Origin: an uncultured Kiritimatiellota bacterium
GTDB taxonomy: Bacteria > Verrucomicrobiota > Kiritimatiellia > RFP12 > UBA1067
Length of the DNA: 64,000 nucleotides
Reading direction: 5' to 3'
Assembly (NCBI GenBank): GCA_934675625.1
Contig: CAKURH010000005.1
Location: 125 to 64,124, forward strand
The position numbers and the translations under genes were made by a program. Below are positions 18,695 through 29,503 of the stretch, piece by piece (positions within the stretch are counted from its first letter, which is position 1; every line of letters begins with the position of its first letter). Under the pieces are notes generated by a model. The model did not search any database, had not been told where the DNA came from, and saw nothing but the letters and a program-made list of their open reading frames with translations.

Positions 18695-20332
18695 TCATCC
18701 CCGGTAGCCATCGAGCACCGTCTGCTTCGGACGCTTGGACTGGCGGGGATAGTCGAGCGTGTAATGGAGGCCGCGCGACTCGTGCCGCTTCTGCGCGCTC
18801 TTCACGATCAACTCCGCGCAGACCGCGAGGTTGCGCAGCTCCAGCGTGTCCGGCGTGACGAGGTAGCGGAAGTAGTAGTCGTGGATCTCGCGGCGAATCA
18901 TGCGCAGACGGTGCGCCGCGCGCGCAAGCCGCTTGTTCGTGCGGACGATGCCCACATAGTCCCACATCAGGCGGCGAATCTCGTCCCACATGTGCGAGAC
19001 CAGCACCGCCTCGTCCGGCGGCACGGCGCTCCCGATCTTCCAGTCGGGAATGAGCGGCTTCCGCACGTCTTCCCCTCTTCCTTCTTCCTTCTTCCTTTTT
19101 CCCTCTTTCTCCCAAAACCTCTCCGGGTGCGGGCCGAGCCGGGCGGCGGTCAGGCGCGCGCAGACGAGGGCCTCCATGAGCGAGTTGGACGCAAGGCGGT
19201 TCGCGCCGTGCAGACCCGTGCAGGCGCACTCGCCGACGGCGGAGAGCCCGCGAATCGAGGTGCGGCCGTCCGTCGTCGCCTGGATGCCGCCGCAGGTGTA
19301 GTGCGCGGCGGGGACGACGGGGATGAGGTCCTTCGCCATGTCGATGCCGAAGGAGAGGCACTTCGCGTAGATGTTCGGGAAGCGCGCCTTCAGGTAGGCC
19401 GCCCCTTTCTTGCGGATGTCGAGGAACATGCAGTCGTCGCCCGTGCGCTTCATTTCGGAATCGATCGAGCGCGCGACGATGTCGCGCGGCGCGAGCGAAC
19501 CGCGCGGGTCGTACTTCTTCATGAACGCCTTGCCGTGCTTGTTGACGAGGACGGCCCCCTCGCCGCGCACGGCCTCGGAGATGAGGAAGCGCTTCGCCTG
19601 CGGATGGTAGAGGCAGGTCGGGTGGAACTGGATGAACTCCATGTTCTCGATCTTCGCCCCCGCGCGCCACGCGAGCGCGATGCCGTCGCCCGTCGCCGTG
19701 TCGGGATTGCACGTGTAGAGGTAGACCTTGCCGCAGCCGCCCGTCGCGAGAATCGTGTTCGGCGAGCGGATCGCGTAGATCTCGCCCGTCGGCTTGTCCA
19801 TGACGTACGCGCCGACGCACCGCTTCTCGCCCTTGAGGCCGATGCGGTTGGACATGACGAGGTCGATGACGATCGTCTGCTCGCGCACCTCGATCGCCTT
19901 CTCGCGCTTCACGCGGCGGATCATCGCCGCCTCGCACTTCTCGCCCGTGATGTCGCCGGCGTGGAAGATGCGCCGCGCGCTATGGCCGCCTTCGCGCGTC
20001 AGGTCCCACGAGCCGTCATCCTTCTTCGCGAAGCGGACGCCGCAGTCGATGAGGTCCTGAATGCCGGCGGGCGCGTTCTCGCAGATCTCGTGGACGACCT
20101 CGCTCTTGCCGAGCCACGCGCCGGCGATCATCGTGTCGCGCGCGTGTTTGTCGAAGGTGTCCTTCGGATCCATCACGCAGCAGATGCCGCCCTGCGCGAA
20201 GTTCGAGTTGCAGTCCTGAAGCCGCGCCTTCGTCACGACGACGACCTTGCCGTACGCGGCGAGGTGCAGCGCGCTCATGAGGCCCGCCATGCCGGACCCG
20301 ACGACGAGATAGTCGCAATCGACCGTCTTCAC
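18695..20332 (-). CDS. nadB: L-aspartate oxidase
   Basis: Motifs DYLVVGSGMAGL (FAD fold), NSNFAQGGI, RFHPT-type (IQFHPT) and GLHGANRLASNSL. GTG start with GGAAGGAG 6 nt upstream. The longer track ORF would begin on top of the promoter. Confidence 0.9.
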   Translation of the reverse strand: MKTVDCDYLVVGSGMAGLMSALHLAAYGKVVVVTKARLQDCNSNFAQGGICCVMDPKDTFDKHARDTMIAGAWLGKSEVVHEICENAPAGIQDLIDCGVRFAKKDDGSWDLTREGGHSARRIFHAGDITGEKCEAAMIRRVKREKAIEVREQTIVIDLVMSNRIGLKGEKRCVGAYVMDKPTGEIYAIRSPNTILATGGCGKVYLYTCNPDTATGDGIALAWRAGAKIENMEFIQFHPTCLYHPQAKRFLISEAVRGEGAVLVNKHGKAFMKKYDPRGSLAPRDIVARSIDSEMKRTGDDCMFLDIRKKGAAYLKARFPNIYAKCLSFGIDMAKDLIPVVPAAHYTCGGIQATTDGRTSIRGLSAVGECACTGLHGANRLASNSLMEALVCARLTAARLGPHPERFWEKEGKRKKEEGRGEDVRKPLIPDWKIGSAVPPDEAVLVSHMWDEIRRLMWDYVGIVRTNKRLARAAHRLRMIRREIHDYYFRYLVTPDTLELRNLAVCAELIVKSAQKRHESRGLHYTLDYPRQSKRPKQTVLDGYRG

Positions 20333-20416
20333 GCCGCGCTCCTTCCGGCCGGTCGCACGTTCCGGCGCACATTCTGGTGTCTGTTCATCTTCTGTTCCCT
20401 GTCTTGCACACCGCAT

Positions 20417-20425
20417 AGTATACCA
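20417..20425 (-). promoter_or_regulatory. Extended -10 promoter (TGGTATACT) for nadB
   Basis: Reverse complement of agtatacca, located between the jetD stop (20454) and the nadB start. Confidence 0.55.
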
Positions 20426-20453
20426 AAAAGTGCGCGCCGCTTCGGGGGTGGGC

Positions 20454-21617
20454 TTAAAACGAGAACGCCTCCTGTTCATACCAACGGCCCTGCTTGAGCA
20501 GAATGGCAATCTCATCGACATAGGGCATGTGCGGGGACTCCGCCAGAAAGCGTTGGGTGCGCATCTGCTGCGCTTCCGTCAACGGGATTCCGGTGATTTC
20601 TCCGGGATTGCGGACAACCTCCGCTGCGAGGACACGGCGTATCGTGAGGCATCGCCCCACCAATGCGGCAATGCGGAAACCGTCGAGATCGGCATCGCCA
20701 GCATGTTCGGCCGTCACGCCCACCGTATCGAGCATACGCAGAAGACGTTGGACGGCGTAATTCGGGTACCCTTCGGTGTAGAGCGCGGGACGCCTCAGCG
20801 TGACGTAACGCGCAAAGGGCGCGGCGTTCTCGCTTGTGATCAACGACCTGTCATCGCCCTGCCATGCGACCGAACGAATGCGGCCCACCGTTTCGCTCGG
20901 AAGCGTACAAGCCAGCCCCGCCGCAAAGAGCCGCATGGGAAAGTCAAACGTCTCGCCCGCATCCGTCGTGAAGACGAGCGGCGCAAAGAACGTTACAAAA
21001 CTCGTGTAGGGATTCTCGATGATGCCGTATGTTCCGAAAAGCGTTCGCTCGTCGATATCGCGTTCCTCCACGGCTGCCAACATCAACGCGAGCTGTCGCC
21101 GCAGGGGGCCTGTCCGCAGGGCCTTGCTGTCGTTGAGCCAGTCGGATCCCAACTGGGAAAGGGTCTTCGCCTCACCGACACCCCTCTTACGCACATGATG
21201 AAACACGCCCAACAACAAGCGCCTCCACGCCACACGATGAGCAGGGCTCCGCAAGAACCGCATCACCTCCGGCATCGTCTGCAAGGCGTCAATCAACGTC
21301 CGTGCCTCCGGCTCACGCCAAGCGAGGCGCGTCAGGAATGTCTCGGGCGATTCCGCCGCCGTGTCTTCCCGCGCCAGCCCCACTGCGGAAATGACCTCTT
21401 GCCACGCCAACGGTTCACGCCAGCGCGGCGGAAGCACCCCCGAAACCGCGCCATCCGCCTTCCGCGTCAAGGGCGTTCCCAAGAGACGTTCCAACTCGCC
21501 CTGTGCCGCATAATCCAGATCTCGCACCGTAAAGTGAGCGGGCAAGGGCTTTCCCTGCAACGCCCGTTTCGCCATCCGAATCAAAAACGGACGGAGCAAC
21601 GCATTCATTTGTGTCAT
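20454..21617 (-). CDS. jetD: Wadjet JetD (Toprim-type nuclease subunit)
   Basis: 387 aa and last gene of a JetABCD-shaped operon. The C-terminal Toprim-like acidic motifs are LITSENAAPF and HAGDADLDGFRI. The N-terminus (LLRPFLIRMAKRAL..FTVRDLDYAAQGELERLLG) resembles TIGR02679-type JetD. Confidence 0.8.
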   Translation of the reverse strand: MTQMNALLRPFLIRMAKRALQGKPLPAHFTVRDLDYAAQGELERLLGTPLTRKADGAVSGVLPPRWREPLAWQEVISAVGLAREDTAAESPETFLTRLAWREPEARTLIDALQTMPEVMRFLRSPAHRVAWRRLLLGVFHHVRKRGVGEAKTLSQLGSDWLNDSKALRTGPLRRQLALMLAAVEERDIDERTLFGTYGIIENPYTSFVTFFAPLVFTTDAGETFDFPMRLFAAGLACTLPSETVGRIRSVAWQGDDRSLITSENAAPFARYVTLRRPALYTEGYPNYAVQRLLRMLDTVGVTAEHAGDADLDGFRIAALVGRCLTIRRVLAAEVVRNPGEITGIPLTEAQQMRTQRFLAESPHMPYVDEIAILLKQGRWYEQEAFSF

Positions 21618-22257
21618 TCCCTTTTGCTTCTTTTCATCTGCCCACCCAATGCCACCTCTTCAAGGGCCGCTTGCTCGCGGCGGAGTTCGGCAAGGAGCTG
21701 TTCCTCGGTCGGCAAGACGAGCTTGTATTTCGCGGCAAAGATCCGCTTCTCGTTGAGCGGCAAGGTATAGCGGACAAGATCCGTTCCCTTGTCCGTGCAG
21801 AGAACAATGCCGATGGGCGGATTGTCACCCGAAGTTCGCGCACACTCCACAGCGACTTCCGACATTCTTCGGTGTAATACTGTCGAGCCTCCTCGTTCTC
21901 GACCGTGATCAAAAGGCGATAATGGCTCCAACTCAATTGTTCACACAGTGTCTGAACTTTTGGAAACGAAAGATAGAACTTTCGCATGGCAAAGAGATTC
22001 ACGCGCGTAAAGCCCGCGCCGAACTCGGCCGTCAACTTTTCAGCCAATGCGTCAATGAGTCCATCGCCATACGTTGCTTTCGCAGAACCGCCCTGCTGTT
22101 CGACAATCATCTTGCCGACGAGCCAGTACGCCTTGACCATCGCGGCATTCGCCGTCTTGTGTACATACCGTCGCGCTTCGACAATAACTTCGCGCACTTG
22201 CGCATAGAAAGCCGATTCGTTCCGCGCCAGACTTGATCCTTTGTTTTTTCTCATCAC
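21614..22257 (-). pseudogene. Decayed DUF1016/YhcG-family PD-(D/E)XK nuclease gene (internal deletion plus frameshift) embedded between jetC and jetD
   Basis: Frame A (from 22257) encodes the YhcG N-domain (VKAYWLVGKMIVEQQ..FTRVNLFAMRKFYLSFP..LSWSHYRLL..WSVRELR). At about 21830 the homology jumps to another frame, which carries only the extreme C-terminus (GDNPPIGIVLCTDKGTDLVRYTLP..AAKYKLVLPTEEQLLAEL). The nuclease core of roughly 150 codons is absent. Confidence 0.7.
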
Positions 22258-22276
22258 CCTATTGCCTCCTTATAAA

Positions 22277-25200
22277 TCAATTGGTCTCCGCCAACACCTT
22301 CATGCCAACGTCCGAATCTGTCGGCGTACCGAAGAAATCGCCTTGCGTGTTTACGTTTCGCCAGACAATCGGACTCAGATGAACGTCAAGATTCTCGTCC
22401 TTGATGACGATGAGCGAGACCGAATGGCTGATCTCGCGCTTGACGCCATCCTGATCGGGCGAGGAGACGAACAATTGGAGCCCAAGGTCGTCGGCAAACG
22501 CGAGCAGCTGATCTCGTCGCGCCGCATCAATGCCATAGAACGCCTCGTCAAAGAGCAGTGGCGCACATTTCGGAGGGTCATTGCGCTCACCGCCATGATA
22601 CAGGAACTCCGCCACCGTCAAAATGAGCAGATAGTTTGGCACGGCCTGTTCGCCACCCGAACCGAGGCTCTTGACCTTTCGGTCGATGATGCGACCCTCC
22701 TCGTTCTCCGTCAGCACCTTGAGCTGGAAGCGGAACCACCGCCGATAGTCGAGAATCTCTGGAATCTGGTCGATTTCGGCGTTTAGGATTTCGTCTCGGT
22801 GTTCTGCTAACGTCTCGCGCAGTTCATCCTTGTCCTCCCCTGAACCTACATTCACGTTGCGTATCTGCTTGACGAACCGCTCGTATGCGGGAACGGGCGT
22901 CAACTCGAATGTGTAGCGGTTCGACCCAAAGCGGCGCCCCGCCAGTTTTTGCTGAATCCGCCGTGCCAAGTTCTCAATCTGCAGAAGATCACGATAGAGC
23001 CGATTCATCACCTCGCCCATGAAGATGCGCTCGAAGACTTCGCGGCTCTTCTGGTTGATGGCACCCTTCAATTCAGCGAGCCTTCGCGTCTCATCCGCCA
23101 GAACCTCGTCCAGTTCGCTTCCGCGCCGATCTGCAAGCCGATTCGCCTCGGCATCGAAGGAAAACGAAAACGTCTCGCCCTTCTGCTCGCGAATCATTCG
23201 CCGTATTTCCGTCTCGGCCACACGCGCATCGCCAATGCACTGCTCACGCAAGGCCGCAAAATCCGTCGCCTGCACACAGGCGGGGCAAAGCCGCGCGGCA
23301 CCATCCGCGATGGACTCGCCCTCTTGCAGGCCATTCGCAAACGCCTCAGCCGACGCCGCCGCGCGTGCCTGTGCGGACGCCGCTTCGGCTTCCTGTGCTT
23401 GACGCATCTTCGTCAGGGTCTCCAGCCGTCCGCGCATCACACCGATTTGCTGCTGGATTCTTTGCGCAGCCTCATCCTTTTGGTGCAGGGTCTTTGTCGC
23501 CGCCGCAATCCGTTTCTCCAGCGATGCGTCGACGCCCTCGGCCCGCATCTTGAGCCGAAGGTCATCCAATTCTTCCTGGACGTCCGCCACCTCCCGCGCA
23601 CGCTCCTCGGCGACGGTCTGCGTCCGCGCCCGCAACGTCTCCTGCGTCGCCTCCTGTTCCCGTGCGCGGCGTACGTTCTCGACGGCTTCGCGAATCTCGT
23701 TCCGCACCGTCTCGACGACGGCCATCAGGCTGCGAACGGCTCGTTCGGACGCCTCGGCGGCCTGCAAATCCCTCTCCGCCGCCTTCTGCGCACGCCGGGC
23801 AACCGCCAAGTTCTCCTCGGCTTCGCGCTGCTGCCGCGCCAGTTCTGCCGCGCGCGCCTTGCGTCCGATGAGCCGGGGCCGCCCGTTCGGCAACGGGGCC
23901 GCACGGTCGCGGAACGCCCATGTCTTGATAGACAAGAACGTTCCGTCCTGCGGTGCGCCACTGGACGCCAATTGCCGCGCCAGCAACCTGACGGCCACAG
24001 GATCGGACTCTTCAAACGAGATGAAGTTTCCAAGCCACGGCGTGAGCGCCGTGACATCCCCGCTCACTTCTTCACACACGGCGACAGCAACAGAAGTTTC
24101 CTCCTGCCACGCGAGCTGACGGACGCGATCCGCCTCCTTCTCGTCCGTCACAAGCGTCGCCAAAAATGCCTCACCCACCAGTTGCTCCAGCAGCGCAAGA
24201 TGCCGCGCGTCACAGCCGGACGCCGGTTCCAGAAGCTCATACACGCTCCGTACCGAGAGCATATTCTGCCGAAGTGTCGCCTGAAGATCCGTAAAGCCGG
24301 GAATCGCAGGGACATTCTCCTTGCGCGTCCGCAACTGCGCACAGACCTTCTCGGCCTCCTCCGTTGCCGTCGCCGCATCCGTGGCGCGTTGTCGCGCCTC
24401 GTAGCTTCGCGTCATCCGCTCGTCACGAGCCTGACCGAGCGTCGGGCCAAGGGCCGCAAACGCCGGCGCACACGCGGCCGTCTTGTGCAGGGGATCTGCC
24501 GCGAAAAGCGCGTCCGTGAGTTCACCGCACGCAAAATCCGCTTCGCGGCTCGTTTTCTGAATCGTCTCGCCCGCGCGCCGCAAGGTGTCCGCACACAGGG
24601 ACACGGCCTGTACACGGGCCTTAGCCGCCATTCGCACACGGGCCGTCTCGTCGGAAAGGCGCGCCGCCTCCTCGTCGGCACGACGTCGGCATTCGACCAG
24701 ACGCGCCACGACGGACTTCTCACGCCCGAGAAGCCCCGTCGCATCCTTCTGCCGGAGATCGTCCAGCCGTTCGCGCGCGCGCTCCGTCTCGGCCCACGCC
24801 GCCTGAGCGGACGATTCGAGCGCCTTCACTTCCGATTGGCCCGCTGTCTCGGCAACCCCAAGCCTTTCGGCTTCCGTTGCCGCGCGGACACGCGCCGCTT
24901 CCGCTTCGGCCCACGCGATGACGGACGTCTGAAGCCGTGCATTCGCAAGCTGGTCTCGCCGACGTCTGAGATCCGTCAAGTAACGGGCTCGCTCGTCAAT
25001 CTGGTCGAGCCGCCCCTTGCTTTCCTCCAGTTCGCGCAAGCCCGTGAGAAGCGGCTCGAACGTCTCGCGCGCCGGATCTTCCAAAAGTTGCCGAAAGAGT
25101 TCATCGTAGTTCGTTGCGCGCGCGGCGATCTCCCGATAGGCCTTGCCCGTCCGCAAGAGCTTGCAGACATCCGCATACTTGGATTCGCCACCAAAGAGAC

Positions 25201-25771
25201 GCTTGGCAACCGCCTCGCGATAATCGCCGATGTGGCCAAAGTATTTGCCGCCCACAAAGTTTCCGCCCGTCAACGCACGCTTGAACTCGGCCTGTGTTGC
25301 GGCGCGGAGACGACCTTCTTCCGCAATCGTGAGCGGCAAGTCTCGAACCGGGACAGACGCCACGCCGCCCCAACTCTGGTAGGCGATATCCAACCCTTCC
25401 GCCGAAAAACCGACCGCGAACGAGACGACCTTGTTCGCATCCGTCATCGACCGCAGTTCAACGGCCGCGTAGGTGATGCCCGTCTCGCGCGCTGCGCGGC
25501 CCGTCACGGCGTTGTAGCGGAGGACGATGCCTTGGATTGTGCGTCCACCGGCATCCTTCGCCCCCGCGACACGTGCGGCGGAATTGAATTCCATGTCGCG
25601 TCCGGCAGAGAGGACAAGATGAATCGCATCGAGAAGCGTCGTCTTGCCGGATCCGTTGTCGCCCAGCAAAAAGAGATGCCCGCCTTCAGGAATGTCAACG
25701 GTCGTGGTGCCAAGATTGTGAAACTCCACAAGGCGAACGGCCGTGATGCGGTAGTTTTCCGAAACTTTCAT
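22277..25771 (-). CDS. jetC: Wadjet JetC (SMC-like ABC ATPase)
   Basis: Start MKVSENYRITAVRLVEFHNLG overlaps the jetB stop (ATGA). Walker A is LLGDNGSGKTTLLDAI. About 700 aa of Ala/Glu/Arg-rich coiled coil follow. The C-terminus has signature/Walker B (LGSGGEQAV, PLLFDEAFYGID). Confidence 0.85.
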   Translation of the reverse strand: MKVSENYRITAVRLVEFHNLGTTTVDIPEGGHLFLLGDNGSGKTTLLDAIHLVLSAGRDMEFNSAARVAGAKDAGGRTIQGIVLRYNAVTGRAARETGITYAAVELRSMTDANKVVSFAVGFSAEGLDIAYQSWGGVASVPVRDLPLTIAEEGRLRAATQAEFKRALTGGNFVGGKYFGHIGDYREAVAKRLFGGESKYADVCKLLRTGKAYREIAARATNYDELFRQLLEDPARETFEPLLTGLRELEESKGRLDQIDERARYLTDLRRRRDQLANARLQTSVIAWAEAEAARVRAATEAERLGVAETAGQSEVKALESSAQAAWAETERARERLDDLRQKDATGLLGREKSVVARLVECRRRADEEAARLSDETARVRMAAKARVQAVSLCADTLRRAGETIQKTSREADFACGELTDALFAADPLHKTAACAPAFAALGPTLGQARDERMTRSYEARQRATDAATATEEAEKVCAQLRTRKENVPAIPGFTDLQATLRQNMLSVRSVYELLEPASGCDARHLALLEQLVGEAFLATLVTDEKEADRVRQLAWQEETSVAVAVCEEVSGDVTALTPWLGNFISFEESDPVAVRLLARQLASSGAPQDGTFLSIKTWAFRDRAAPLPNGRPRLIGRKARAAELARQQREAEENLAVARRAQKAAERDLQAAEASERAVRSLMAVVETVRNEIREAVENVRRAREQEATQETLRARTQTVAEERAREVADVQEELDDLRLKMRAEGVDASLEKRIAAATKTLHQKDEAAQRIQQQIGVMRGRLETLTKMRQAQEAEAASAQARAAASAEAFANGLQEGESIADGAARLCPACVQATDFAALREQCIGDARVAETEIRRMIREQKGETFSFSFDAEANRLADRRGSELDEVLADETRRLAELKGAINQKSREVFERIFMGEVMNRLYRDLLQIENLARRIQQKLAGRRFGSNRYTFELTPVPAYERFVKQIRNVNVGSGEDKDELRETLAEHRDEILNAEIDQIPEILDYRRWFRFQLKVLTENEEGRIIDRKVKSLGSGGEQAVPNYLLILTVAEFLYHGGERNDPPKCAPLLFDEAFYGIDAARRDQLLAFADDLGLQLFVSSPDQDGVKREISHSVSLIVIKDENLDVHLSPIVWRNVNTQGDFFGTPTDSDVGMKVLAETN

Positions 25772-26436
25772 TCGGCGACCTCCTGTTCCGTTTTCGCCGA
25801 TTCCACTGAGCCCGAAATCGGCTCGGCGAGCTGCGCCGCCTGATAGTGCCAAAGGGCCGGCAGACACTCCCAGATCGTCTCCGCCTCGCTGACAGATTCG
25901 TCGGCGGACGGCTTCATCTTACGTAGGAAGCGATAGCGTTCCAACGTCGGCATCAGGCCACGCAGGATCTGCCGCACCTTCTCGTCCGTATACAGCGCGC
26001 GCTTCTCCGGCAGCAGTTCGCGGAACCGCGCTGCCGCGTATTCAAGCCAGTCGCCGAAGCGAATGCGCAGGTTGTCGCGATCATCCGCCGCCACGCCCTG
26101 TTCGCGAGCCTCCCTCTCAAAGAACTCCAACAGCAGCAGAAAGCCAAGACATTCATCACGGCGCGTGAAGCCGAACATGTCCCGATTCGGTGGCGTGATC
26201 GCCTCGTTGTACCATTTCGGCTTGTAGAGACGTGCGCATTTCGCATCCATCACGAGCGTCCATCCAAAGCACTTGTCGAAGAACGCCGCGAACGCCTGAC
26301 GATACCGCTGCAGCACGAGAAAGGTGCGTTCGTCGTCCGTCTTGTAGAAATACGGCGACTCCATCAGGATGTTCAGGGCCGTCTGCACGAGGACGGATGT
26401 CTGGTCGCCTCGGTCGAGCAGTTCTTCAATCTTCAT
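25768..26436 (-). CDS. jetB: Wadjet JetB (small KITE-like subunit, DUF4194-sized)
   Basis: 222-aa acidic protein in the canonical position between jetA and jetC. Overlaps jetA by 11 nt and jetC by 4 nt. Assignment rests on position and size. Confidence 0.7.
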   Translation of the reverse strand: MKIEELLDRGDQTSVLVQTALNILMESPYFYKTDDERTFLVLQRYRQAFAAFFDKCFGWTLVMDAKCARLYKPKWYNEAITPPNRDMFGFTRRDECLGFLLLLEFFEREAREQGVAADDRDNLRIRFGDWLEYAAARFRELLPEKRALYTDEKVRQILRGLMPTLERYRFLRKMKPSADESVSEAETIWECLPALWHYQAAQLAEPISGSVESAKTEQEVAE

Positions 26437-28036
26437 GTTCGGATTCCTTTTGCGCTTTCGCGAGAACCAAATCGTTGCAGGTCAACATACACCCGACACC
26501 AGTCAACGTCGCCGCTTCGGACAGTTCTCGCGCGGTGACATCAAGATAGCGGCGGCCTTTCTCGCCACGGCCAAGGCACGTGTATTCAATCAACTGGACA
26601 ACATTCGGAAAATCGTCGAACGTCTGCGGAACGAGGGACGAGAGTCGCGTTGTCGATTCTTCGGGATAAAGGGCGCATGTTTTGAGCCAGTCTTTCAGTC
26701 GCGCACCACGCACCTGGGAAATGGAGGCGATATCCGCCTTTTCGCCGACCGTTCGCGGCGTAATCCATGTGACGGTCTTTCTCGCCTTGACCTTCGCAGA
26801 GGCTTTCGGAAGCGGATGCACCGACTTCTCGCCGCCGGGACGGATCTGTGCATCGCCCCGCATCGCCGCCGTCTCCAGCAACCGGCGAAACCAGCCGTAG
26901 GGAACGACATCCTCCTCCATTTTCGCAAGTTCGGCAATCCGCACGCCAAGGTCTTCGAGACGGTGGTTGCGGCGTTCAAGTTCACGCAGTTTTGCGTTGA
27001 GCTTGCCCCAGACCTTGCGTGCCGAATCGACGATGCGTTGCATCAAATCGACAAGTGCGCCGTCGGGTGCATAGAATCGGGCGGCATCGGAAAGAATCGC
27101 GGCCGCATCGGGAATGCGCATGGACGCAATGTGGCGGAACTTCGACGCCTCGGCACGAAGGACGTCCGCACACATTGCCCAACGCGCCGCCTGATTCGGA
27201 CGCCGCAGTTCCGTGAGATCCTGGACAATCTCCTCGCGCAAGACACCGAAGCGCCGCCCGAATCGGTCCAGGAAGAGCGCGAGTTCATCGACAACAGGCT
27301 TGGCCGCGTCCGCCGCGAACGATTCCGCACCGAACGAGAGAAGCCGCAGGTTCAAGGCCTGCAATGTCCGCGCAGTCGCATCGACATAGACACGCATCTG
27401 CTCGACGCGGTAGAGGACATCACCGGCGGTATCGGCATCCGTCCCCGTCGGCGCCACCGTGCGGAGTTTGCGCCGAAGTTCATGTAGCAGAGAACACTGG
27501 AGGTCGAGGAGATTGCCGGTGATGTCGCCCCCACCCGCATCCAACGGACGGTCTCGCCGTTCCTCCAACCACGCGACAAATTGGGCGGCCTCTTCGCAAA
27601 GCCGATAACGGAACTTCGTGCGACGGTTGTCCCGATAGCCACGCAACCGCTCCTTCTCGATTCGTTCGGTGACAAGCCCCCAGTCCTTCAGCTGGCGAAG
27701 ATCGCTCTTGAGCGTCAGTTCGGCAAACGGATCGAGCGTTTCGCCGCAGACGGCGCGCGCAATGTCCTCATGAAGCGGTTCGGGTTCGTGATGCTGACGG
27801 AATTCGGCGAACGCCCGCAGAATCGCCACATACTCGACGGCGCGATCAGCGGCAAGAAGACTTCCAAGCTCCTTGATCTTGCCGCCGACCCATTCAGCGG
27901 TCGAGGCGACCAGCGGCGAATCGATGAGCCGCGCCGATTCGGACGCAGCAGACGCATCCGGCTCACGCGAAACGCCCACCCGCGCCTCCGCCGCCGCAAA
28001 CAAGTCATCCGACCAATTGTCCCGCCCCCTTTTCAT
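26426..28036 (-). CDS. jetA: Wadjet JetA (kleisin-like subunit)
   Basis: 536 aa and first gene of the operon. The N-terminal winged-helix-like segment (AVEYVAILRAFAEFRQHHEPEPLHEDIARAV) resembles the TIGR02677/DUF2397 type. Assignment rests on synteny plus weak motif memory. Confidence 0.7.
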   Translation of the reverse strand: MKRGRDNWSDDLFAAAEARVGVSREPDASAASESARLIDSPLVASTAEWVGGKIKELGSLLAADRAVEYVAILRAFAEFRQHHEPEPLHEDIARAVCGETLDPFAELTLKSDLRQLKDWGLVTERIEKERLRGYRDNRRTKFRYRLCEEAAQFVAWLEERRDRPLDAGGGDITGNLLDLQCSLLHELRRKLRTVAPTGTDADTAGDVLYRVEQMRVYVDATARTLQALNLRLLSFGAESFAADAAKPVVDELALFLDRFGRRFGVLREEIVQDLTELRRPNQAARWAMCADVLRAEASKFRHIASMRIPDAAAILSDAARFYAPDGALVDLMQRIVDSARKVWGKLNAKLRELERRNHRLEDLGVRIAELAKMEEDVVPYGWFRRLLETAAMRGDAQIRPGGEKSVHPLPKASAKVKARKTVTWITPRTVGEKADIASISQVRGARLKDWLKTCALYPEESTTRLSSLVPQTFDDFPNVVQLIEYTCLGRGEKGRRYLDVTARELSEAATLTGVGCMLTCNDLVLAKAQKESEHED

Positions 28037-28075: not shown

Positions 28076-29503
28076 TCACGCGCGATCCTCCGGCTCCTCC
28101 TCCAAGACGATGGCGGCTGTGCGGCCGGTCGACGACGCCGTGCCGATTGGGTTCACCGGATCGAAGTTCGCGCCGAGGACGACGGCGCGGCGCGGCGACG
28201 ACGTGTCGCCCGACACCCACGGACGCGCCTCTGACAGGAGATACGCGCTGGAGGCGAGATCGGAAACCGTGTCGTCGGGATGCTCCGCCGGAACCTGCGG
28301 CGGCAGCACCTTCTTGTGCAGGGCGAGCGCGACCTTCACCAGTCCCGCCGCCATCGCCGCGCGCAGCGTGTGCCCGATGTTGCCCTTGACGGAACCGACG
28401 CCCACGAGCGGCGAACCCGGCGTGTGCGCGCCCCACAGGAGGCGAATCGCCTCCAGCTCGCGCGCCTCGGCGTCCTTCAGCCCCGATCCGTCGGCCTCGA
28501 CGAGCCCAATCGAGCGGACGGGAACGCCGGCGCGCGCGGCGGCTTCGGCGAAGACGGCGGACGGATCGTTCGCCGGATTGTGCCCAATCGCGACGCCGCG
28601 CACGAGCGCGTAGATCCGGTCGCGGTCACGCAAGGCGTCCGCCCGGCGCTTCAGGACGAAGAACGCACCGCCTTCGCCGGGAATCGTGCCGTCCTGCTCC
28701 TGCGCGAAAGGATGAAGCTCGTTGCGCAGGGAGAAGGTCGTCTCGCCCGAAAGCCCCTCCAAATAGGCGCGCGCAAGCGGTGGCGTGAGCGCGCCCACAA
28801 GGGCGATGTCGGCGCGACCCGACACGAGGTCGTCCATGGCATCGGCGAGCGTCGCCGCGCCCGTAAGGAGCCCGGCGTCCATGATCGTCGCCGCGCCGTC
28901 GAAGCCGCATTCGCGCGCGATCCATGACGCCAGGCGATAGCCCGCACCCATCAGGAACGAGACCGCGTTCGGCGGCGGCAGCGAGTCGAGCAGCTTGGCC
29001 TTGACGGCCTCCAGCGCCTCTTCGGGCGCATGCGGGAAGAACCGCCGCACGACGTCCAGCGTCTGGTCGAGGATGGCCGTGTGCTGCAGCCAGTTCACCG
29101 TCGAGGCGTTGAACGGCGGCGCGTAGCCGAAGCGCACCGTGCCCCGGACGGACGGGTTCGCGTGCGGCTTCATGCCCGCATCGGCCAGCGCGTCGAACGC
29201 GAGCTGCGTCGCGAAGTAGAGATCCTGGTTCTCGCCCGCGTTCACCTGACGCGGAAAGTTCTGCATCGAGGGCACGCAGGCGTAGAGGTCGCCAAGCTGG
29301 CCGAGGCGCGCCGGATAGGGGCGCGCAAAGACGTTCTTCTGCCCGAACGGCAGTTCAGCCTCCGGGCCGGGCGGCGTCAGCAGCGCCCTGCGCGCCATGA
29401 CCGCCTCCCAGAGGGCGGCGGGCGACGGACAGCCGGCGAAGCGGCACGACATGCCGACGATGGCGACGGCGCCGCTCGCGCCCAGCTGCAGGGAGGTGGC
29501 CAC
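28076..29503 (-). CDS. Stand-alone PKS-type ketosynthase-like protein with degenerate active site
   Basis: KS fold motifs AIVGMSCRFAG, DGTIPGEGGAFFVLKR and GSVKGNIGHTLRAAMAAG. However, the catalytic Cys position reads Leu (IMDAGLLTG versus DTACSS) and the first catalytic His reads Asp (VEADGSG versus EAHGTG). Confidence 0.8.
   Translation of the reverse strand: MATSLQLGASGAVAIVGMSCRFAGCPSPAALWEAVMARRALLTPPGPEAELPFGQKNVFARPYPARLGQLGDLYACVPSMQNFPRQVNAGENQDLYFATQLAFDALADAGMKPHANPSVRGTVRFGYAPPFNASTVNWLQHTAILDQTLDVVRRFFPHAPEEALEAVKAKLLDSLPPPNAVSFLMGAGYRLASWIARECGFDGAATIMDAGLLTGAATLADAMDDLVSGRADIALVGALTPPLARAYLEGLSGETTFSLRNELHPFAQEQDGTIPGEGGAFFVLKRRADALRDRDRIYALVRGVAIGHNPANDPSAVFAEAAARAGVPVRSIGLVEADGSGLKDAEARELEAIRLLWGAHTPGSPLVGVGSVKGNIGHTLRAAMAAGLVKVALALHKKVLPPQVPAEHPDDTVSDLASSAYLLSEARPWVSGDTSSPRRAVVLGANFDPVNPIGTASSTGRTAAIVLEEEPEDRA

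Follow-up and report, generated by a model that had tools for sequence, protein, structure and literature searches.

The window analysed here is a stretch of 64,000 nucleotides (nt) from an uncultured Kiritimatiellota bacterium (contig CAKURH010000005.1), which carries on its minus strand an operon of the anti-plasmid defence system Wadjet with a broken nuclease gene of the DUF1016/YhcG family between jetC and jetD. Homologues of JetA, JetB, JetC and JetD were identified with Pfam and PADLOC models as one co-oriented operon, in this order; jetC and jetD do not overlap and are separated by 659 nt (21618-22276), an interval referred to below as the slot. The features of operon and slot are as follows, with protein lengths in amino acids (aa).

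26426..28036, minus strand: jetA, 536 aa (Pfam DUF2397, 2.3e-12; PADLOC JetA2)
25768..26436, minus strand: jetB, 222 aa (Pfam DUF2398, 9.6e-10; PADLOC JetB2)
22277..25867, minus strand: jetC, 1196 aa, SMC-like ABC ATPase, stop codon TGA at 22279-22277 (Pfam AAA_29 and SbcC_Walker_B; PADLOC JetC, 9.4e-48)
22265..22271, minus strand: Shine-Dalgarno (SD) sequence of the slot, AAGGAGG, 7 nt before GTG 22257, with ATG 22254 following (read from the sequence)
21634..22257, minus strand: open reading frame (ORF) of 207 aa, open in the window, with DUF1016_N as far as 21832, then 66 out-of-frame codons and TGA at 21636-21634 (ORF list, Pfam)
21829..21832, minus strand: deletion junction of allele A, CTTCG joined to GGTGAC (alignment to relatives; identical in six independent assemblies)
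21614..21829, minus strand: C-terminal fragment of YhcG_C in the ancestral frame (GDNPPIG...KRSKRE, then stop), unreachable from the start codon (Pfam, alignments)
21618..21623, minus strand: SD of jetD, AAGGGA, within the 3' end of the remnant, 9 nt before ATG 21608 (AAGGGA or AAGGGG kept in the intact loci L009 and L002)
20454..21617, minus strand: jetD, 387 aa from ATG 21617, Toprim nuclease subunit (PADLOC JetD, 3.9e-16; Pfam DUF2399)

An earlier note on this DNA had described the fifth frame as a broken DUF1016/YhcG-type PD-(D/E)XK nuclease gene, with its own AAGGAGG SD 7 nt before GTG/ATG, an out-of-frame joint at about 21830 and the core gone, and had proposed profile searches of both fragments and alignment to intact homologues. 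The coordinates were confirmed, and both lines of evidence agree with this description. The 207-aa ORF contains a complete DUF1016_N domain (PF17761, E=1.5e-42; residues 20-147 against profile positions 1-131 of 137). A second frame (21931-21614) matches YhcG_C (E=1.5e-10) over profile positions 100-153 of 157 only, about the last 55 codons, and the gene has no complete YhcG_C in the frame of DUF1016_N. Both pieces also match the PADLOC PDC-S02 models (up to 1.6e-48). Alignment to the intact genes of the related loci L002, L009 and L015 mapped a single gap of 427 nt, equal to 142 codons plus 1 nt, which shifts the frame; the junction reads CTTCG followed directly by GGTGACAAT at 21832-21829. 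Residues E217, D241, D256-x-K258 and Q269...Y273 (numbering of homologue P0001) are invariant in 27 intact homologues, and all of them fall inside the deleted segment (about residues 143-285), so that the gene can no longer give rise to a nuclease.

The same junction, designated allele A, was found in the window and in five related loci (L006, L010, L022, L025, and L037) from different gut metagenomes, samples and projects. ORFs of 206-207 aa of this type were also called in relatives (P0046, P0049, P0050, and P0057) and fall into several protein clusters. An assembly or sequencing artefact hiding an intact gene, a possibility that the earlier note had raised, is excluded by this identity of the 427-nt junction in six independent assemblies and is, with the recurrent 206-207-aa product, practically out of the question. 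The shared junction argues for one ancestral deletion event. At the junction only an imperfect 8-nt repeat (CGAACTTC / CGAATCCC) was seen, together with one unexplained extra G, and a search for repeats within the window remnant gave just short matches at chance level. Two routes by which the C-terminal fragment might be translated were considered by inspection of the sequence only and set aside: no X XXY YYZ heptamer for a programmed -1 frameshift occurs near CTT CGG GTG, and no convincing SD precedes the in-frame ATG upstream of the junction. A scan of the remnant detected no promoter-like sites, and terminator-like sites were no commoner there than in shuffled sequences.

Intact copies of the gene occur in relatives. 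Among the closest homologues of the reconstructed protein are full-length ones (354-362 aa, 85-97% identity), which have both domains. A search for the gene order jetC-intact DUF1016-jetD, also proposed in the note, found jetA-jetB-jetC-DUF1016-jetD with an intact gene of about 360 aa in L002-L005, L009, and L038. In these loci 19-22 nt separate jetC from the start of the DUF1016 gene, which has the same SD and ends in a stop codon overlapping the start of jetD (ATGA/GTGA), in agreement with the view that the window remnant is a former translationally coupled operon gene. The intact loci derive from gut metagenomes, and those that are metagenome-assembled genomes (MAGs) bear the label Kiritimatiellaeota or Lentisphaerae. 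The shared place, SD and stop/start overlap are also what would be expected of an ancestral five-gene Wadjet, as suggested in the note, with the YhcG-type nuclease as a genuine auxiliary subunit or effector that worked alongside JetD and has decayed here; in the clade with at least 75% JetD identity, moreover, DUF1016 or its remains are in or beside the operon at nearly every locus.

The gene is not confined to this position, nor to this form of decay. It was found intact at a second position, 3' of jetD and an NYN gene, in L001/L008; at the same position in L014 it carries a 1-nt frameshift and is truncated, and in L007 only a 120-nt relic is left there, jetC being followed directly by jetD. 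A further truncated form, allele B, is an independent, in-frame core deletion of 453 nt at a 3-nt GAC microhomology of an L009-type gene (RQI[D/G] joined to KGSDLV), with products of 203-208 aa. To judge from these loci, the DUF1016 gene is inactivated in at least four separate ways: allele A, allele B, the L014 frameshift and the L007 relic. Counted by contig, about half of those with close homologues carry a truncated allele beside intact jetABCD. The NYN/Zn-ribbon gene lies 3' of jetD in several relatives and is absent from that place in the window. The L001/L008 contig (GCA_963653155.1, CAVJWR010000055.1) is titled Limosilactobacillus gorillae, yet its Wadjet has about 60% GC and encodes proteins 85-93% identical to those of Kiritimatiellaeota MAGs; it was probably mis-binned or mislabelled.

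The jetC-jetD junction was surveyed in 63 loci anchored on JetD alone, by measuring how far the start of jetD lies from the stop of jetC. In 42 of them jetC and jetD overlap or are separated by at most 152 nt (most commonly -4, -13, and -22 nt), which indicates translationally coupled jetC/jetD as the ground state, and the remaining 21 contain 470-4156 nt of heterogeneous inserted DNA. DUF1016 occupies the junction in five of the 63 loci, all of the closest clade, other cargo in 16, and no cargo is present in 42. Where the boundary is empty, jetC and jetD of this Wadjet family as a rule overlap by the 4 nt ATGA. The other cargo is as follows.

AAA_14+DUF4143 ATPase (PADLOC PDC-S01): L011 and L073
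SLFN_AlbA_2+HATPase_c_4 (Schlafen/AlbA_2): L092 and L060, with a C-terminal relic in L001
T5orf172 and ApeA-HEPN: L060
PIN_3 toxin with a small upstream ORF: L069
PIN7 toxin: L012, L068, and L073
Gene X, NERD-like nuclease, 295 aa: L006, L015, L017, and L022
Remaining cargo, including UPF0047 and a 23S_rRNA_IVP-like protein

The leader, SD and start of the slot serve whatever gene follows jetC, be it DUF1016, AlbA_2 or jetD itself (L007). DUF1016 and the unrelated SLFN_AlbA_2 cargos have in common the leader, the SD, the GTG and about the first nine codons (MxKKNKGSS), after which they diverge (window 22225-22276; L002 9982-10035; L092 384-440; L001 7235-7290); this common 5' end points to replacement of cassettes in situ, which leaves a chimeric 5' end. 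The AlbA_2 relic of L001 makes up the whole jetC-jetD gap of that locus, 470 nt.

Against this background a five-gene Wadjet is very improbable. The overlapping arrangement is the ground state and no cargo is found at 42 of the 63 loci; the slot of sister lineages holds unrelated and varied cargo; jetC passes directly to jetD in L007 and the gene stands 3' of NYN in L001/L008; truncated alleles lie beside intact jetABCD on about half of the close-homologue contigs; and close homologues also occur outside Wadjet altogether. Three of the latter (P0026, P0065, and P0072, 67-75% identity) have no jet genes nearby and adjoin RhuM, methyltransferases, GmrSD, or a second DUF1016 copy. The remnant is most probably a decayed, exchangeable accessory gene embedded in a variable slot of the Wadjet operon, rather than a fifth Wadjet part. 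The DUF1016 protein would have acted independently of Wadjet, and its remnant presumably has no function of its own.

On this reading, the jetC-jetD junction of this type II-like Wadjet lineage is a variable slot for co-oriented accessory genes, mostly of defence type, the cargo taking over the SD and start after jetC and passing ribosomes on to jetD. In this lineage the slot gained a DUF1016/YhcG-type PD-(D/E)XK nuclease gene (PDC-S02), of a family habitually nested in defence operons. In the window a single deletion of 427 nt has removed the linker and the whole catalytic core and shifted the frame, leaving the 207-aa ORF, a helical N-domain with a nonsense tail, which extends from a strong SD to 25 nt before jetD. 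A polar effect of the deletion is improbable, and Wadjet probably remains functional as a four-gene system.

The start of jetD bears on this last point. The note had described an overlap of the fragment's stop with the jetD start at ATGA 21614-21617, and had asked whether jetD is still efficiently translated. The ATGA at 21617-21614 does exist, created by a TGC>TGA change that gives the window its earlier stop, but relatives conserve a different jetD start, ATG 21608-21606 in the same frame, and this one overlaps TGA 21607-21605, the ancestral stop of DUF1016. The concern about translation is weakened by the conserved AAGGGA SD 9 nt before ATG 21608, and JetD is probably still made. The deletion is predicted to be non-polar, and Wadjet to be a working four-gene system, because the N-terminal frame stays open through the junction to 25 nt before ATG 21608 and because jetD has an SD of its own. 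JetD of the window keeps every residue that is invariant in 13 JetD homologues, including the TSENAAP and HxGDxDxDG motifs (invariant columns H305, G307, D308, D310, D312, G313, and E263-P267 among them), and the head motifs of JetC are present, as AAA_29 (P-loop) and SbcC_Walker_B matches.

Several points weigh against the reading of the remnant as a dead, independent accessory gene. The independence of the nuclease from Wadjet is read from distribution alone, and in the closest clade DUF1016 is very commonly beside Wadjet, either embedded or just downstream, so a functional link specific to this clade may exist. The non-polarity of the deletion and the expression of jetD are predictions from the reading frames and SD sequences. 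The ratio of non-synonymous to synonymous substitution rates (dN/dS) of the remnant N-domain is low (0.04-0.5), which is compatible with a truncated protein that is still used. Finally, in the one published test found, a PDC-S02 representative gave no protection against T7, T5, and T4 (bioRxiv 10.1101/2024.09.26.614923), and PDC-S02 is a defence candidate only.

The dN/dS values bring in the reading that the N-domain-only protein of alleles A and B has been retained for a function such as DNA binding or regulation, or else as a spacer whose translation maintains the coupling of jetD or gene X and shields it from polarity. Both deletions, although independent, leave the SD, the start codon and the complete N-domain untouched; in both alleles the open frame ends about 25-30 nt before the next gene; each allele occurs on several haplotypes; and dN/dS of the N-domain is low among truncated alleles. 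However, dN/dS is equally low in the C-terminal frame of allele A, which is not translated, and was traced there to tracts from intact alleles: the first 60 nt or so of the L022 C-terminal fragment are identical to L009 and represent an imported tract. The N-domain values are therefore no measure of selection on the truncated protein, since the untranslated frame is equally low and the variation is imported from intact alleles; recombination with intact alleles would explain them equally well. The newest comparisons of truncated with intact alleles gave slightly higher dN/dS (0.14-0.29), from very few changes. The open tail of allele A counts for little, because of the two wrong frames that were possible just one is open. 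Retention of the N-domain protein is accordingly regarded as unlikely.

Recombination is evident across the junction. In nucleotide alignments the window remnant is a mosaic: its N-terminal part resembles L015 and L010, its C-terminal fragment is a haplotype found solely in truncated alleles, and its last 40 nt or so, together with the adjoining jetD, are L009-like. Similarly, allele B of L017 lies in a short L009-like patch, and the rest of that gene is L015-like. JetC of the window is 97-98% identical to JetC of L010 and L006 (98% for L010), whereas JetD is only 76% (L010) and 85% (L006) identical. The difference between 98% for JetC and 76% for JetD in the comparison with L010 marks the junction as a recombination breakpoint, with deletion alleles moved between backgrounds. 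Allele A is, as far as these alignments tell, old enough for homologous recombination to have spread it to several haplotypes and jetD alleles. Downstream of the intact gene, of allele A and of allele B alike, gene X is present in some loci and absent from others. From the JetC and JetD identities, JetD itself looks like part of the variable region, and JetD N-termini occur in two forms, with and without an extension of about 15 codons.

Free-standing homing endonuclease genes sit between the genes of phage operons. A selfish gene of this kind, which invades operon junctions with little damage and then degenerates, in a cycle that runs from invasion through fixation and decay to loss, was considered as another origin of the remnant. 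As in homing endonuclease genes generally, the insertion is intergenic and spares expression of the flanks, presence or absence is polymorphic and degeneration is frequent: one site shows presence/absence polymorphism, two positions in one locus are used, independent decay has recurred, and the downstream translation signals are left intact. DUF1016 genes also piggyback on conjugative elements (PMC4316617). Cleavage of empty sites and homing into them are, however, postulates of this reading, and many unrelated non-nuclease cargos occupy the same Wadjet slot, which would be explained by a property of the slot itself or by recombination within its conserved flanks rather than by homing of this gene. 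Free-standing homologues, moreover, have defence genes as neighbours. Homing is therefore given a low probability.

The embedded accessory gene, as preferred here, is closest to the embedded defence cassettes reported by Payne et al. (bioRxiv 10.1101/2024.01.29.577857, 2024), where discovery by "guilt by embedding" and the PDC candidates were described, with PrrC in EcoprrI and BrxU in BREX as examples. Like these, the window gene lies between core genes, jetC and jetD, in the same orientation; DUF1016 homologues are found both free-standing and nested in type I restriction-modification (RM) systems (PMC9881135), and the Wadjet slot has diverse alternative cassettes including PDC-S01 and ApeA. 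It differs in that the embedded gene of the window is dead. With the DUF1016/YhcG family itself (PF17761 + PF06250; PDC-S02) it shares a full-length N-domain and the end of YhcG_C, but it is a pseudogene derivative with the core deleted and the frame broken. DUF1016 has been reported between type I RM core genes and as enriched beside phase-variable RM and BREX genes (PMC9881135). Wadjet is not among the hosts listed by Payne et al. (bioRxiv 10.1101/2024.01.29.577857), and in text searches of the literature Wadjet-embedded genes were nowhere reported. The nesting of a defence gene within a defence operon is already known; the new details are Wadjet as the host, the jetC-jetD slot, and the independent core deletions.

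By analogy with PrrC/EcoprrI, the junction might also be a dedicated place where second-line effectors with a functional connection to Wadjet are exchanged, such as a nuclease restrained by JetABCD and released when Wadjet is inhibited. The recurrent core deletions, which keep the frame or are non-polar and spread between strains, would then be selected switch-offs, and the N-domain protein would be regulatory or dominant-negative. There is only a small chance that this is so.

With the embedded accessory gene as the best explanation, the operon would be annotated as a four-gene Wadjet plus a pseudogene, the fifth frame being a dead accessory gene. Wadjet would join the defence systems known to host embedded genes, with the insertion point pinned to one junction. 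The intact gene, the two core deletions, the frameshift, the relic and the empty site would form a natural allele series for probing the common but uncharacterised YhcG/DUF1016 family (PDC-S02), which bears on why the nuclease core is repeatedly discarded. The other slot occupants would be candidates for discovery by embedding.

Two attempts concerned the structure of the nuclease. A phmmer search of P0010 against PDB sequences gave no match, that is, no solved structure, and an AlphaFold2 model of P0001, the closest of the intact homologues, from a 27-sequence alignment was judged unusable (mean predicted local distance difference test score, pLDDT, of 55; nuclease domain below 50). In L031 (6001-8784), next to RhuM and a number of methyltransferase fragments, DUF1016/YhcG occurs as a tandem pair of genes (368 and 365 aa), and behind each of them comes an ORF of 125 aa; gene and ORF may together form a small module that is repeated here.

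Gene X encodes 292-297 aa and is low in GC (L006 4843-5736, L015 5057-5935, L017 6632-7519). In many relatives it separates the DUF1016 gene from jetD, and it is kept beside the intact gene, allele A and allele B; its domain matches are weak (NERD, E=6.5e-5; CARF-PDDEXK/Csx1 also weak). In a more distant subclade (L012, L068, L073, and L051) the cargo follows directly on the ATGA overlap, and empty sites are found in L013, L066, and L071. A second SD-ATGA copy (AAACGGAGGCAAAATGA) precedes jetD in this subclade, so that each end of the insert bears a copy of the initiation motif. These inserts also contain a HUH-motif ORF and GC-rich repeated tracts. The HUH-motif ORFs of L012 and L051 had no Pfam match at E<=1e-3; by their motifs they resemble REP-associated tyrosine transposases (RAYT).

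The window operon resembles the canonical four-gene Wadjet (JetABCD) in having all four genes in order and apparently intact, and it is type II-like by DUF2397/DUF2398/DUF2399. It differs in the short JetB (222 aa), in the wide spacing of jetC and jetD, and in its PADLOC models, the best of which are mixed across the operon (JetA2 and JetB2 but JetC1 and JetD1). GC content rises from 0.52-0.57 in the remnant through 0.60-0.62 in the jet genes to 0.65-0.71 in the housekeeping genes on either side; GC at third codon positions (GC3), at 0.67-0.76 in the jet genes, falls short of the 0.89 found in the flanks. Both operon and cargo look acquired because these values are below those of the flanking genes. 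The operon is wedged, with spacing of about 40 nt, between genes for a ketoacyl synthase and a FAD-binding oxidoreductase (flanks 18695-20521 and 28076-29503), and in close relatives the Wadjet operon occurs in at least four different chromosomal neighbourhoods.

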